Positions 2,820-15,093 of a DNA stretch of 64,000 nucleotides are shown in pieces (position 1 is the first letter of the stretch; each line of letters begins with the position of its first letter). The stretch lies in assembly GCA_012690745.1 (NCBI GenBank), contig GCA_012690745.1_4086.2; one strand, 5' to 3'. The notes beneath the pieces were generated by a model. That model did not search any database. It saw only the letters and a list, made by a program, of their open reading frames with translations, and was not told the origin of the DNA. A program made the position numbers and the translations under genes. The DNA comes from a phage.

Positions 2820-2855
2820 ATATTCCTCCTTTATTTGTTATACTATATTTAATCA

Positions 2856-2884
2856 AAAAGAAAAGCCAGTACAAAGTACTGGCA
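2856..2884 (-). terminator. intrinsic terminator
   Basis: GCCAGTAC-AAA-GTACTGGC hairpin followed by T-run on minus strand. Confidence 0.55.
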
Positions 2885-2889
2885 TAATG

Positions 2890-4041
2890 TCAATAAGCAT
2901 CCCAAGGTAATGGTGTCTTTCTAAACCCATACCTAGTTGCGTTCTGCCCATCTCCGGCAATGTATCTACCGGTCCCACACTGATATAATTCAGTACTGCT
3001 ACATATCGCACCACCAATAGTACCACTACACCACTGTGTTATATTAGAATATAATATTGGTAAATCACTACATTTGGTATATAATGCAACAGTGGCAGCC
3101 CCGCTCGGACCACCAAACACACTTCGGTTCGAACCCGTGTAATATATGCCATCTGGACTCATAAATGCAGATGTATAAGTTGTACTGCAATCCACTGGAC
3201 TTCTTATATTATTAAGATCGCTTGGGTATGCTCTAGCACCATATGTGTATACATTACCAGCAGTAGTAATACCATTACCTAACTGACCATCATTTTGTCC
3301 ACCACATGTAACCAACGATGCAGTACCGGAAACAATTGCAGTAGCATTATACGAAGTACCTATAGCAATAGAAGCACCCGCCCTTTGGGATGGGGTAGGA
3401 ACTGCGGCTGCGTTCCCCTGACCTAATTCACCATTGACATTTCTTCCCCATCCATATACCGAGGTGGTATCTAATTGACATAGTACTGTACCATAACTAA
3501 ACGTATATCGTATATCTTTCACAGCCGATGGTAAACCACTAACTTTAGTTGCAACACTAATAACTCCAGAAACACCAGTAACTCCAGCGTTTGCGTTCAT
3601 ATTACGTCCATATGCGTATAAAGAACCATCAGCAGTTTTAATATGCATCATGCCATCTGTGCAATATAATGCATCGATGCTATCCACTATAACCACTCCC
3701 ATACTAGACGTTATATCGTTCCACCCAAACGTTGTAGTATTAGAAATTAAGTTATTTCCAGCGTAAAGTATTCTATTATTATTTGTAACTACAACTGTAT
3801 AATTGGCAGTAACGCCAATTAATCTAACATTCTCATATATCTTAGACCACATTCCTATTGAATTTGTGTTAGCATCCAGAAATCCCAACTGACCAGCGGT
3901 ATTATATCCAATACCCCACACATCACCTGCACTGTCCAATAACACTTCATGGGAAAAACCAATCTTAAAATCTTTTATCGTTGGTGTTACAGGAACAGGT
4001 TTAATATTCCCGTACTGAATCATTCTTGCAAAAGGTAACAT
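2890..4041 (-). CDS. RCC1-like beta-propeller repeat protein (MLPF-tag family)
   Basis: ORF track 2890..4107, start trimmed to conserved MLPFARM ATG; GQLG/GELGQG motifs. Confidence 0.7.
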   Translation of the reverse strand: MLPFARMIQYGNIKPVPVTPTIKDFKIGFSHEVLLDSAGDVWGIGYNTAGQLGFLDANTNSIGMWSKIYENVRLIGVTANYTVVVTNNNRILYAGNNLISNTTTFGWNDITSSMGVVIVDSIDALYCTDGMMHIKTADGSLYAYGRNMNANAGVTGVSGVISVATKVSGLPSAVKDIRYTFSYGTVLCQLDTTSVYGWGRNVNGELGQGNAAAVPTPSQRAGASIAIGTSYNATAIVSGTASLVTCGGQNDGQLGNGITTAGNVYTYGARAYPSDLNNIRSPVDCSTTYTSAFMSPDGIYYTGSNRSVFGGPSGAATVALYTKCSDLPILYSNITQWCSGTIGGAICSSTELYQCGTGRYIAGDGQNATRYGFRKTPLPWDAY

Positions 4042-4080
4042 AATTCCCTCCTTATTCATTATACTATATTTAATACAAAT

Positions 4081-4106
4081 AAGAAAGCCAGTACAGAGTA
4101 CTGGCA
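4081..4106 (-). terminator. intrinsic terminator
   Basis: GCCAGTAC-N3-GTACTGGC hairpin plus T-run. Confidence 0.55.
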
Positions 4107-4112
4107 TTGTGT

Positions 4113-12721: not shown

Positions 12722-12726
12722 TCGTA

Positions 12727-13836
12727 TTACTTGGGTAATGGAATTGTGGTCCATCTATTTGCGGCAACGTCACCTGGTACATATGTAGGACTACCACTTA
12801 CAGCAATAGTTTCATTACCATCATATACAACACTGAAGTTTGTGCACGTATACAACGCTGCGGCATCTGGATTGTAATTTTCAAGTGTTAGTGTATTGGT
12901 GAACAAATTCAATGCAGTAGTTGAGCCGTTTTTACCATATGCACCTGTAGTATATATCTTTCCTTCTGTTGTTGAGTACATATTAACATATGACCCAGAT
13001 GATGATTTAGCAATTTTATCTATCTTGCTATCTATTGTTTTAGAGTTAAATTGAAATGGATATACCTGTACGTTAGTATCTAAACCATTTCCCAGTTCCC
13101 CATTTAACTGCCACCCTGTGTGGTACATTCCCGCATTTGTATATGCAAGCGTACTATACGCATTACCACCCATTATTTTAGTGCCAGATAATTTTAAACC
13201 AAACGATGTCCACTTACCAGTTTCATTTCCTATGGAACCATAAGCACTTGTACCACACGCACGAAGCTCGCCATTTGACGTTAGAAGCACTGTATTATTA
13301 ACGTTACCAAATATATCAATAACCTGATTAGTGCCATTATTCAGTACTGAAGTAAAAGTACTCTGTGAGTAAGTACTACCTGAACCAACAGAACCATTTG
13401 TGTTCATACCTCTTCCATATACAATTTTACCATCAGCACTAACATAGTGCATTGAATCAAAACCAATGGATATCATTTTAATATCAGATATATCTGGAAA
13501 TGAAGAAGTTACATCTACTCCACCTAGTGGAATTGTATTATTTCCTAAACCTAATGAGACATTAGTTCCGTGCATTATAAATTTATCTTCTTTAAAATAT
13601 AAAATATTATATCCACCAGCCCATGCATTATTAACGCCATTTGTAATCAGTACCCATTTATTTTGTGTAGTAGTTCCAGTAATATTTAACTGTTGATAGT
13701 TATTGATTCCACAACCATATAGCGATCCATCACCATATAGTACATATAAATTATCATATCCTGCAATAACTTTCTTTATTTTTTTGGGTACAGGTGCTAC
13801 ATTCCCATACTTTAACATTCTTCCAAAAGGTAACAT
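12727..13836 (-). CDS. RCC1-like beta-propeller repeat protein (MLPF-tag family)
   Basis: ORF track; MLPFGRMLKYGN; GELGNG/LGLGNN motifs. Confidence 0.7.
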   Translation of the reverse strand: MLPFGRMLKYGNVAPVPKKIKKVIAGYDNLYVLYGDGSLYGCGINNYQQLNITGTTTQNKWVLITNGVNNAWAGGYNILYFKEDKFIMHGTNVSLGLGNNTIPLGGVDVTSSFPDISDIKMISIGFDSMHYVSADGKIVYGRGMNTNGSVGSGSTYSQSTFTSVLNNGTNQVIDIFGNVNNTVLLTSNGELRACGTSAYGSIGNETGKWTSFGLKLSGTKIMGGNAYSTLAYTNAGMYHTGWQLNGELGNGLDTNVQVYPFQFNSKTIDSKIDKIAKSSSGSYVNMYSTTEGKIYTTGAYGKNGSTTALNLFTNTLTLENYNPDAAALYTCTNFSVVYDGNETIAVSGSPTYVPGDVAANRWTTIPLPK

Positions 13837-13874
13837 TATTTTCTCCTTTATTCATTATACTATATTTAATACAA

Positions 13875-13902
13875 AAAGAAATGCCAGTATCAAGTACTGG
13901 CC
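13875..13902 (-). terminator. intrinsic terminator
   Basis: GCCAGTA-N5-TACTGGC hairpin plus T-run. Confidence 0.55.
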
Positions 13903-13907
13903 TATAT

Positions 13908-15044
13908 TTAAATTATTGTTGGTAATGGTAATGGTATAAATTCATCACTCGATGGCAAACCATATAACGTAGTTGCATTTCCAGAATAATACCATCCCGT
14001 TGAATCTTGCACTATAGATAGATATGCTAACGATGCCGCCTTTGTTATATCATTAAACCCGTGTGGTACTTCTTTAAATGCAGATGAATATTCAACACCA
14101 GGATCACCAGAAGATAGTGTATTGTTAGTACCAGCATAATATAAAGTATTGCCATCTGTGCTTATAGCAAAAGAAAGAACAGAGTTATTCATATCACTCC
14201 ACAAATCCCTAAACCTGCCTCTATATCCGGTTAATTCTGTATACGAATATACGTTTGTGGTATTTGAAGAAGAATTACCTAGTTGATAATTTCTATTTTG
14301 ACCTGCTATAACATATCTAGTGATACCATTAGTATCATAATATAATATACCAGAGTTTAATGTTGACATACCAACTGCACATTCGGATGCAAATTCGGGA
14401 GCAGAGTACAAATTATAAGAAGTTAAATTTGTGCTAGTACCCAATGCTCCAGTATTGCTTATACCACAGCGGTAGTAACCACCAGTAGTACTAGAATATA
14501 TAGTACCAGATAGAGAAGTGTAGAATTTTGAAACATTTGATGCAACTAATACAGCATTAACTTTGCTTGTTGAACCACCAAATGATTGGTTATTATCATA
14601 TCCTTTAGCATATAATCTATTATCATTTGTAAGTAATCCTACACAATAATAAGTTATTTTCATTTCACGAACTGTGCTTAGATTCACTGCACTAAATTGT
14701 GTCGTAACATCTTTCCATGTAACAACTTTAGAACTTGTCGAACCACCAGATTCAAACCATTCATCACCACAGTATAAAATTTTATTATCTACAGTTAATA
14801 CAACGCATACTAAATTACTAGCACAAGCAAACTTAACATCATCTCTAACTTTAGTCCACTCGGTTACATTCACTATAGTATCAGTTCCTATACCTAATTT
14901 GCCATACGCATTATTACCACGCACCCATAATTCATTATCCTCGGTTATTAGTAATAATGAATTAGCACCTGCAACAATATCACGTATTTTTAGTTTATCT
15001 GGTGCTACGTTCCCATAATTCATCATTCTTGCAAAAGGTAACAT
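13908..15044 (-). CDS. RCC1-like beta-propeller repeat protein (MLPF-tag family)
   Basis: ORF track; MLPFARMMNYGN; first gene of the minus-strand array. Confidence 0.7.
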   Translation of the reverse strand: MLPFARMMNYGNVAPDKLKIRDIVAGANSLLLITEDNELWVRGNNAYGKLGIGTDTIVNVTEWTKVRDDVKFACASNLVCVVLTVDNKILYCGDEWFESGGSTSSKVVTWKDVTTQFSAVNLSTVREMKITYYCVGLLTNDNRLYAKGYDNNQSFGGSTSKVNAVLVASNVSKFYTSLSGTIYSSTTGGYYRCGISNTGALGTSTNLTSYNLYSAPEFASECAVGMSTLNSGILYYDTNGITRYVIAGQNRNYQLGNSSSNTTNVYSYTELTGYRGRFRDLWSDMNNSVLSFAISTDGNTLYYAGTNNTLSSGDPGVEYSSAFKEVPHGFNDITKAASLAYLSIVQDSTGWYYSGNATTLYGLPSSDEFIPLPLPTII

Positions 15045-15093
15045 ATATCCCTCCTTTATTCATTATATCATATTTACCTCCTAACGAAAACCC

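Follow-up and report, generated by a model that had tools for sequence, protein, structure and literature searches.

Putative late expression modules that may also serve as recombination joints separate the RCC1-like genes of an Asteriusvirus-group jumbo phage

The promoter-early stem-loop (PeSL) cassettes of T4-type phages (Arbiol et al. 2010, PMC2839356; Comeau et al. 2014, PMC4122927) combine a terminator stem-loop and a promoter, with or without a Shine-Dalgarno (SD) sequence, in a compact element that is present in many copies within hyperplastic regions. They flank variable, nonessential open reading frames (ORFs), and through recombination between copies, close relatives come to differ by the loss, gain, or replacement of entire ORFs; shuffling and mini-circles have been reported. 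The internal-protein (IP) loci of T-even phages (Repoila et al. 1994, EMBO J 13:4181; summarized in PMC2839356) are polymorphic loci of virion-packaged proteins in which each ORF opens with a conserved leader of ≈11 residues and is bracketed by conserved blocks of transcription and translation signals, and in which the number, order, and identity of the ORFs vary between related phages through recombination in those blocks. Here, we describe a locus that resembles both, found in a 64,000-nucleotide stretch of phage DNA (contig GCA_012690745.1_4086.2 of assembly GCA_012690745.1; hereafter the window), where a tandem array of RCC1-like genes is punctuated by a recurring intergenic cassette of hairpin, T-run, promoter-like box, and SD sequence. 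We consider it probable, on the evidence of sequence comparison, that each cassette is a late expression module and that it doubles as a joint for recombination. What is new is that the cassette belongs to a longer island, which undergoes concerted evolution and seems to mark recombination junctions. A search of the literature on the genus Asteriusvirus and its members turned up neither an account of the cassette nor any promoter or transcript map for this genus.

By megablast, the window falls into the Asteriusvirus group of jumbo coliphages, together with PBECO4, 121Q, slurp01, G17, Sharanji, phAPEC6, and JP4. No record in the collection gives good coverage of the array, the best match having 54% coverage at 97% identity. 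An earlier reading made from the letters of the window (the sequence-only reading) had placed the RCC1-like genes at 2820–15090; the array is indeed there but reaches down to 311, so that 13 RCC1-like units occupy 311–15076 of the minus strand. Twelve begin with ATGTTACCTTTT and the thirteenth with the synonymous ATGCTACCCTTT. The family assignment made at that time is borne out by Pfam: in all three array proteins tested, PF00415 and PF13540 (RCC1 and RCC1_2) exceed their curated cut-offs, and PF25390 (RCC1-like domain) gives E-values of 1e-18 to 1e-31 but stays under its cut-off. The ten intact proteins, which share 22–31% pairwise amino-acid identity, are encoded by units A (13908–15044), B (12727–13836), C (11479–12657), D (10205–11407), E (9087–10196), F (7847–9016), G (6627–7775), H (5365–6555), J (2890–4041), and K (1677–2819). 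Unit I (4113–5292) and the last unit, L (311–1463), are frameshifted RCC1-like ORFs, and a stub of 36 residues lies between K and L (1556–1666); all are on the minus strand. The stub has a counterpart of 269 residues in G17. The last array unit is also broken in phAPEC6 (52 residues), for which reason the frameshifts and the stub are probably genuine decay rather than sequencing error.

A complete cassette consists of the hairpin, the T-run, the box TAAATATAGTATAA(T/C), the SD sequence AAAGGAGG, and the ATG codon, and it fills nine gaps of 69–72 nucleotides; the array has three partial cassettes and two junctions with none in addition. Conservation extends past the ATG through codon 12, which gives a leader of the form MLPF-x-RM-xx-YGN. 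Between units, identity is 89% over the cassette (−66 to −1) and 88% over the first 36 nucleotides of the coding sequence (CDS), compared with 55% over the remaining CDS and 54% in shuffled sequences. Because identity stays high from the hairpin to codon 12, we treat the two parts as one conserved island of ≈100 nucleotides. Islands of this kind occur at 373 places in 40 records, all of them phages of this group.

On the minus strand of the window, the nine complete islands lie before unit B (13801–13901; hairpin 13883–13901, T-run, TAAATA 13863–13868, box 13854–13868, SD 13841–13849, ATG 13836), unit C (12622–12720; hairpin 12702–12720, TAAATA 12682–12687, SD 12661–12669, ATG 12657), unit D (11372–11474; hairpin 11454–11472 with a stem extendable to 11452–11474, TAAATA 11434–11439, SD 11412–11420, ATG 11407), unit F (8981–9083; hairpin 9062–9080 within an 11-bp stem at 9059–9083, TAAATA 9042–9047, box ending in TATAAC, SD 9020–9028, ATG 9016), unit G (7740–7840; hairpin 7822–7840, TAAATA 7802–7807, SD 7780–7788, ATG 7775), unit H (6520–6620; hairpin 6602–6620, TAAATA 6582–6587, SD 6560–6568, ATG 6555), the frameshifted unit I (5257–5358; hairpin 5339–5357, TAAATA 5319–5324, box ending in TATAAC, SD 5297–5305, ATG 5292), unit J (4006–4105; hairpin 4087–4105, TAAATA 4067–4072, SD 4046–4053, ATG 4041), and unit K (2784–2883; hairpin 2865–2883, TAAATA 2846–2851, box ending in TATAAC, SD 2824–2832, ATG 2819), and each runs on into leader codons 1–12.

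The sequence-only reading had counted ten gaps with the cassette; nine are complete, and the tenth, before unit A (15009–15076), has no hairpin, as there is no gene upstream of it on the minus strand. It carries only the box variant GGTAAATATGATATAAT (TAAATA 15071–15076) and an SD sequence (15049–15057) ahead of the ATG at 15044 and the leader. In both G17 and Salmonella phage 7t3, this box variant is likewise found before the gene that opens the array. Two junctions of 8–10 nucleotides, before the ATG codons at 10196 and 1666, hold an SD sequence only. At the D/E junction (10197–10206), singled out earlier as lacking the cassette, there is indeed just an 8-nucleotide gap with GGAGGG, the SD sequence AGGAGGG overlapping the stop codon of D, and E is probably cotranscribed with D, with which the short gap is consistent. 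At the K/stub junction (1631–1690), the gap is 10 nucleotides, there is no hairpin, TAAATATAATATAAA (1676–1690) lies inside the 3′ end of K, and the SD sequence is at 1670–1678. The last island, before unit L (1428–1530), has a hairpin at 1510–1528 (GCCAGTGC-CTT-GTACTGGC, with one G·U pair), a run of seven T, the degenerate box CCTAAATATAATAAC (TAAATA 1492–1497), an SD sequence at 1468–1473, and the ATG at 1463, where ATGCTACCCTTT holds synonymous variants of the leader codons.

These elements recur far more often than expected by chance. The literal hairpin pattern proposed at the outset, GCCAGTAC-N3-5-GTACTGGC, has six matches against 0.00 expected, while the hairpins of the other three complete cassettes read GCCAGTA-CTTGA-TACTGGC (7 bp, 5-nucleotide loop) and fall outside it. 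The 18-mer box, with up to three mismatches allowed, was found 10 times against 0.87 expected, always on the minus strand within the array, and not once in the remaining 49 kb of the window. Between positions 1 and 17000, there are 23 terminator-like sites against 6.7 ± 2.8 expected, most of them cassettes.

We propose that each cassette would act as a compact, self-contained late expression module. An intrinsic terminator, made of an RNA hairpin of 7–11 bp and a T-run, would lie 4–9 nucleotides past the stop codon of the upstream gene, and a T4-type late promoter would directly follow, its TAAATA presumably read by a phage gp55-family sigma factor on host core RNA polymerase with no −35 element. 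We infer a start site ≈6–8 nucleotides downstream of TAAATA, inside the TATAA(T/C) half of the box, and the resulting leader of ≈20 nucleotides would carry the strong SD sequence 3–4 nucleotides before the ATG. The module would also span the first four codons, fixed in nucleotides (ATG TTA CCT TTT), and the protein-conserved 12-residue leader. Purifying selection and frequent ectopic gene conversion would keep the islands alike, and since the island is the only homology left between units, it would be the site at which whole units are inserted, deleted, and reordered by recombination. The array would thus appear to act as a set of portable one-gene cassettes. With the cassette, the genes can probably be expressed independently of one another; the earlier wording, that every RCC1-like gene has its own expression unit, is slightly too strong on account of the two junctions without one.

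Evidence that the hairpin pairs as RNA comes from an alignment of 39 cassettes from five phages: the phage of the window, G17 (record L001), phAPEC6 (L002), the divergent Asteriusvirus EJP2 (L007), and the unclassified Salmonella phage 7t3 (L008). Stems of 7–11 bp contain 4–5 G-C pairs and are followed by TTTCTTATTT or TTTTCTTTTT. Across the alignment, stem pairs change from G-C to A-U (five sequences, with G·U in two), from C-G to A-U, and from C-G to U-A, and there are wobble changes from U-A to U·G (six) and from A-U to G·U (two), so that individual pairs take the forms GC/AU/GU, CG/AU/UG, CG/UA/UG, UA/UG, and AU/GU. Changes on both sides are seen in 4 of 10 stem pairs, and 90% of cells remain paired. 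The covariation score, 0.152, compares with 0.109 ± 0.010 in shuffled alignments (none of 500 shuffles reached it) and with at most 0.058 in controls with slid partners. Whole cassettes fold with minimum free energies of −14.8 to −19.6 kcal/mol (z-scores of −2.1 to −4.4), and in each fold the stable part is the hairpin; a run of 5–8 T follows it in every lineage. G·U pairs are possible only in the sense-strand RNA, and the G·U intermediates together with the compensatory changes point to pairing in that RNA and not to a DNA site. In the G17 record, the depositors annotate the same hairpins as ARNold terminators (−10 to −12.8 kcal/mol). An intrinsic terminator, as the sequence-only reading had suggested, is the most economical reading of the hairpin and is supported by these comparisons. 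The hairpin core AGTAC/GTACT does not vary among the 38 distinct cassettes, and pairing may not be the only reason for this.

The box behind the T-run had been taken for a late-type promoter recognized without a −35 element. The late type is supported by what follows, and the half of the box that discriminates is TAAATA, not TATAAT. Each of the 39 aligned cassettes has TAAATA without change. Of TATAAT, only the first two bases (TA) are invariant; it reads TATAAC in four of the nine window cassettes and TATGAT in some cassettes of EJP2. TAAATA is also the core of the T4 late box, TATAAATA. T4 late promoters consist of an 8-bp TATA box at ≈−10 and an AT-rich downstream segment and have no −35 element (Geiduschek & Kassavetis 2010, PMC2988020), and a T4-like late motif, ATAAATA, was earlier proposed for the related Rak2-like phages CBB and GAP32 (PMC5259590). 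A candidate for the cognate factor is phAPEC6 gp237c, which matches phrog_234, "late sigma transcription factor," of the gp55 type (E = 8e-18).

A search for the box upstream of structural genes, one of the checks suggested at the outset, was run in phAPEC6 and ties TAAATA to virion genes. Virion genes were defined as those verified by mass spectrometry in the published proteome (PMC7247149). Over 100 kb of this relative, TAAATA lies 15–80 nucleotides upstream (−80 to −15) of 17 of 31 virion genes versus 8 of 87 others (odds ratio 12, p = 6e-7), the others including the large terminase gene; when the count is limited to genes preceded by a gap of 40 nucleotides or more, it is 13 of 21 versus 6 of 35 (p = 2e-4). 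Exact copies of TATAAATA stand at the genes for the major capsid protein, the scaffold (gp226c), and gp238. Many phAPEC6 TAAATA promoters have a looser second element, TATA(A/T), 3–5 nucleotides downstream, at the position expected of a T4-type start site (PMC2988020), and of 17 nonarray matches to TAAATA-N3-5-TATA in three segments of that genome (1–50, 80–130, and 180–230 kb), 11 are directly upstream of virion genes. At gp274c, an unrelated hairpin is followed by a T-run and TAAATAAAGTATAAT, the cassette architecture outside the array. We therefore rejected the idea of a signal private to the array: the full 18-mer is found only there, yet its core and architecture recur upstream of phAPEC6 virion genes. 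In the 57-nucleotide divergent gap between gp192c and gp193 (L005, 35098–35156), two TAAATA boxes with TATA(A/T) elements stand back to back.

The window itself avoids the same hexamer. TAAATA occurs 29 times against 143.6 ± 10.8 expected, an approximately fivefold depletion. Twelve of these copies occupy the cassette position, and in the early region (49 kb) only two are on the sense strand. ATAAATA is found twice against 48 expected, and the T4 late octamer is absent from both strands against 16 expected. Among AT-only 8-mers, those with a count of zero in the window are exactly those that contain ATAAATA or its complement. Such strong avoidance singles out TAAATA as a potent signal. TATAAT is not avoided (180 copies against ≈157 expected).

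Several observations weigh against this reading of box and hairpin. The cassette octamer ATTAAATA agrees with the T4 box at six of eight positions, and the TATAAT half is well kept even in the distant 7t3 and EJP2, a conservation that a late-promoter model would explain only as start-site context. The gene for the late sigma factor lies outside the window and was examined in phAPEC6 only; moreover, the authors of the CBB study detected no homologues of gp33 or gp45 (PMC5259590), so the T4 mechanism of activation may not apply. The array adjoins the early region and diverges from it, and the array proteins in phAPEC6 virions are represented by 1–5 unique peptides each (PMC7247149). As to the hairpin, the T-run is interrupted in this phage, and termination may accordingly be leaky. 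Late, −35-independent transcription with TAAATA as the recognized element is, in our judgment, well supported by inference.

The products of the array fit late expression as well. The phAPEC6 virion proteome includes the array proteins gp003, 005, 006, 007, 009, and 010, plus gp549 and gp551 (PMC7247149), and in this close relative the RCC1-like β-propellers are minor virion components. GAP32 gp001 is likewise a virion protein (PMC5259590). Their leader is conserved in two ways. Residues M1, L2, P3, F4, R6, M7, Y10, and N12 are invariant in 10 paralogues with 18–29% identity to the first sequence; codons 2–4 read TTA, CCT, and TTT in 22–23 of 23 paralogues with mutual identities of <60%. At columns of the gene body where Leu or Pro is conserved, 4–5 different codons are found, and leader codons 10 and 11 vary synonymously. 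By these codon patterns, constraint or homogenization acts on the first ≈12 coding nucleotides as DNA or RNA and on residues 5–12 as protein. In an AlphaFold2 model (predicted local distance difference test score, pLDDT, 66.8; predicted template-modeling score, pTM, 0.75), residues 1–3 and 5–13 have a pLDDT below 50 and lie outside the propeller blades, which we regard as weak evidence. The leader has no conserved Glu cleavage motif and no obvious L/I-x-E site for a prohead protease. A search for MLPF-x-RM-xx-YGN outside the array genes found no instance in the window or in the examined stretches of G17, phAPEC6 (≈150 kb), and EJP2, and the leader as a general capsid-targeting tag of the phage was rejected, since it is restricted to array genes in those stretches. 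A start of MLPF, with codons ATG TTA CC(T/A) TTT, is kept in RCC1-like genes of other jumbo-phage genera.

Expression alone fails to explain why the island reaches 36 nucleotides into the CDS and why it evolves in concert. Between orthologues with a body divergence of <2.3%, islands differ at 27 of 576 sites and bodies at 82 of 8838, a fivefold excess (p = 2e-10). In the collinear segment D-E-F-G shared with G17, the three cassettes hold 8 differences in 212 nucleotides compared with 18 in 4632 coding nucleotides (p = 9e-6). Five of the differences fall in the E-F cassette, although both flanking proteins are identical; this cassette switches to a linked haplotype, TATAAC-AA, that other cassettes also carry, the alternatives TATAAT-GA and TATAAC-AA being common to nonorthologous cassettes. 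Leader residues 5, 8, and 9 tend to track the genome (VK in phAPEC6, LE in EJP2) and not the orthologue. The divergence of the island is approximately constant (5–12%) whatever the divergence of the body, as expected of a shared pool that is continually converted. These patterns indicate that the cassettes evolve in concert and probably act as recombination joints.

Comparison of whole arrays shows mosaicism at the level of units. Gene E has no cassette here or in G17 and a full one in phAPEC6 (99% amino-acid identity for E), and gene K has a cassette here and none in G17 (99% amino-acid identity for K). The order of units differs among the window, G17, and phAPEC6, as in D-E-F here versus E-D′-F′ in phAPEC6. 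Identity to the phAPEC6 copies is 98% for E and J, compared with 81–83% for their neighbors D and F. Units B and C are absent from G17, where the lone junction equals the A-B junction of the window on its left and the C-D junction on its right, which places the crossover of this insertion or deletion within the shared segment from hairpin to box.

The module appears to be older than the array. In Cronobacter phage GAP32 (genus Mimasvirus), the single-copy gene gp001 (L009, 1090–1260) is preceded by a different hairpin, a run of eight T, GGGTAAATA, and an SD sequence, and it starts with ATGTTACCATTT, which encodes the full leader MLPFSRIIQYGN; this single-copy module suggests that the module predates the array. 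An array in Yersinia phage fHe-Yen9-04 (L010, 1310–2560) has 10-nucleotide gaps and no cassettes, with only MLPF conserved (MLPFPII), from which it follows that cassettes are not obligatory.

Other explanations of the signals must be weighed against a terminator joined to a late promoter. The box could instead be a sigma-70-family promoter with TATAAT or the overlapping TATAGT as its −10 element, read by host sigma-70 or by a phage RpoD-like sigma factor and giving early or middle expression. TATAAT, a perfect −10 element in five of nine cassettes, persists in 7t3 and in the majority of EJP2 cassettes; an RpoD-like sigma factor is encoded by these phages, and the array abuts the early region. 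We found no −35 hexamer that fits the cassette, in agreement with the sequence-only reading, and no consistent hexamer or spacing across lineages, the only sequences upstream being the T-run and the hairpin arm; a TGn extended −10 is also lacking. The best candidates pair CTGGC(A/T) in the hairpin arm with TATAGT, among them CTGGCA-17-TATAGT, a 9/12-class match, at three cassettes. This score class is no commoner than in shuffled sequences (77 found versus 90.2), and the candidate −35 in EJP2 stands at a different spacing. In four of nine cassettes, C replaces the final T that is critical to the hexamer, the second element at other phAPEC6 TAAATA genes reads TATAAA, TATATG, TATACG, or TATAGA and would be unfit as a −10, and the window depletes TAAATA, not TATAAT. 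The −35 of the "divergent RpoD" of CBB, TGAAACG, is not present in the cassette sequences, and the array products are virion proteins. We have therefore rejected sigma-70 recognition as the principal reading and regard it as quite unlikely. Another account makes the hairpin a stabilizer of mRNA 3′ ends, a target of RNase processing, or a DNA palindrome bound by a dimeric protein, with the array mostly transcribed as a long read-through RNA from the first promoter. The C or A that interrupts the T-run would suit it, the invariance of the central A-U/G-C pairs could reflect sequence-specific recognition, and two junctions work without any hairpin. Set against this are the signs of sense-RNA pairing, the 5–8 T directly 3′ in all lineages (uninterrupted T7–T8 in EJP2 and GAP32), the ARNold calls, and the promoter-like box behind each hairpin, which would be redundant in a pure read-through operon; we judge this account, too, to be improbable.

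Two further explanations concern the island as a whole. Its likeness between units could be a functionless leftover of tandem duplication, given that the array is obviously born of duplication and that duplicated units bring their own flanks. The gene bodies, however, are at the nucleotide identity of shuffled sequences whereas the island is at ≈89%, and the architecture is kept in EJP2, 7t3, and the single-copy GAP32 gene, compensatory changes having preserved the stem. Further tandem families, which lie in the early region of the window (25, 11, 6, and 6 small genes), abut or overlap, with ATGA-type junctions and no cassettes, which argues that the cassette is not an automatic product of duplication. 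These families, all on the plus strand, comprise 25 consecutive ORFs of ≈70 residues at 40785–46549, plus one member at 61347, and abutting or overlapping families of 11, 6, and 6 members at 15577–19739, at 55485–57244 with 62687–63049, and at 57254–60640. A mere leftover is thus highly implausible. Alternatively, the island could be kept mainly as a recombination substrate, a portable joint for the shuffling of virion genes in which regulatory signals are secondary, a view that complements the expression module more than it opposes it. The roughly fivefold excess of island over body divergence between near-identical orthologues, the tendency of leader variants to follow the genome over the orthologue, the presence or absence of a cassette at one and the same gene, the crossover of the B and C indel inside cassettes, and the precedents of PeSLs and T4 internal-protein loci would all agree with it. 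Nevertheless, invariance is greatest at precisely the functional signals (stem, T-run, TAAATA, SD, and ATG), and the spacer between box and SD sequence changes in length and sequence between lineages; that this spacer is free to vary suggests selection on the signals and not on the raw length of homology. We therefore find it rather doubtful that recombination is the main function and prefer a late expression module that also serves as a joint.

Beyond the array, from 15.1 kb onward, the plus strand carries ≈150–190 small, tightly packed ORFs, typical of an early region. Between the two lies a divergent control region (15045–15147), in which the late-type box of unit A (15062–15076, minus strand) stands back to back with an early-gene promoter, TTGACA-17-TACTAT (15094–15122, plus strand), a good sigma-70-like match. 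From 15100 to 20000, the GC skew stays negative to ≈20 kb as in the minus-strand array, though the coding strand turns to plus at 15.1 kb, and the AT skew is unusually high (0.15–0.23). The stretch 19740–21700 is poor in ORFs. No noncoding RNA emerged when the window was scanned for tRNA genes and Rfam families.

Asteriusvirus and Rak2-like jumbo phages are under development for therapy, yet none of their transcription signals has been characterized, nor have ≈80% of their genes. The analysis offers a strongly avoided late-promoter core (TAAATA), predicted terminators backed by covariation, and a concrete candidate mechanism for the RCC1-like locus being the most variable part of otherwise near-identical genomes. 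More speculatively, the array may be an integrase-free cassette system for virion proteins, in which the island is the joint at which phage homologous recombination excises, captures, and reorders single-gene units (maybe by way of mini-circles), the leader is an address tag that brings whichever β-propeller is present to the particle, and the genes form a rapidly exchangeable repertoire for host interaction or counter-defense, a late-promoter counterpart in jumbo phages of the T4 internal-protein loci. We put this forward tentatively, as a possibility that is on balance not the expected one. If the leader is a virion tag and the island a joint, the array would provide a natural platform for swapping cargo proteins into the jumbo-phage particle.

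Each part of the cassette has a counterpart among known signals. Like canonical intrinsic terminators, it has a GC-containing stem of 7–11 bp, a loop of 3–8 nucleotides, and a T-run just past the stop codon; unlike them, the T-run is interrupted here and the terminator is fused, within 14 nucleotides, to the next promoter. With T4 late promoters and the motif of CBB and GAP32, it shares an AT-only box, putatively at ≈−10, an AT-rich downstream segment, and the lack of a conserved −35 element; phAPEC6 likewise encodes a gp55-family sigma factor, and the box is found upstream of structural genes. It departs from them in the imperfect match of its octamer, in the semiconserved TATA(A/T) added 3–5 nucleotides downstream, and, for the group, in the gp33 and gp45 homologues reportedly undetected in CBB.

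As an arrangement, the cassette is closest to the PeSLs, with which it shares the compact union of terminator stem-loop, promoter, and SD sequence and the many copies. PeSL crossovers map between stem-loop, −10 element, SD sequence, and ATG, and the same holds here for the indel of units B and C. There is no sequence homology between the two, however, and whereas the PeSL promoter is a strong, sigma-70-like early promoter, that of the cassette appears to be of the T4 late type, with a TAAATA core and no −35 element. PeSLs flank unrelated ORFans, whereas the cassettes separate paralogues of one virion-protein family, and only the cassette block extends into the CDS, as the 12-residue leader. 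Without a sigma-70-like early promoter, the cassette is better seen as an analogue of the PeSLs than as a member of them. The T-even internal-protein loci are matched in each of the features set out above: a polymorphic locus of virion-packaged proteins, a conserved leader at the start of each ORF (12 residues here), bracketing blocks of signals, and variation in the number, order, and identity of the ORFs. The T4 leader is a proven capsid-targeting sequence cut by the prohead protease, whereas MLPF-x-RM-xx-YGN is without an obvious L/I-x-E motif; the IP elements are described as combining T4 early promoters with stem-loops that are weak and AT-rich (PMC2839356), whereas the cassette promoter appears to be late; and the array encodes β-propellers of ≈40 kDa, with more than 10 per array. 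If the present reading is right, the principle embodied in PeSLs and internal-protein loci would reach beyond the classical T4-like phages.

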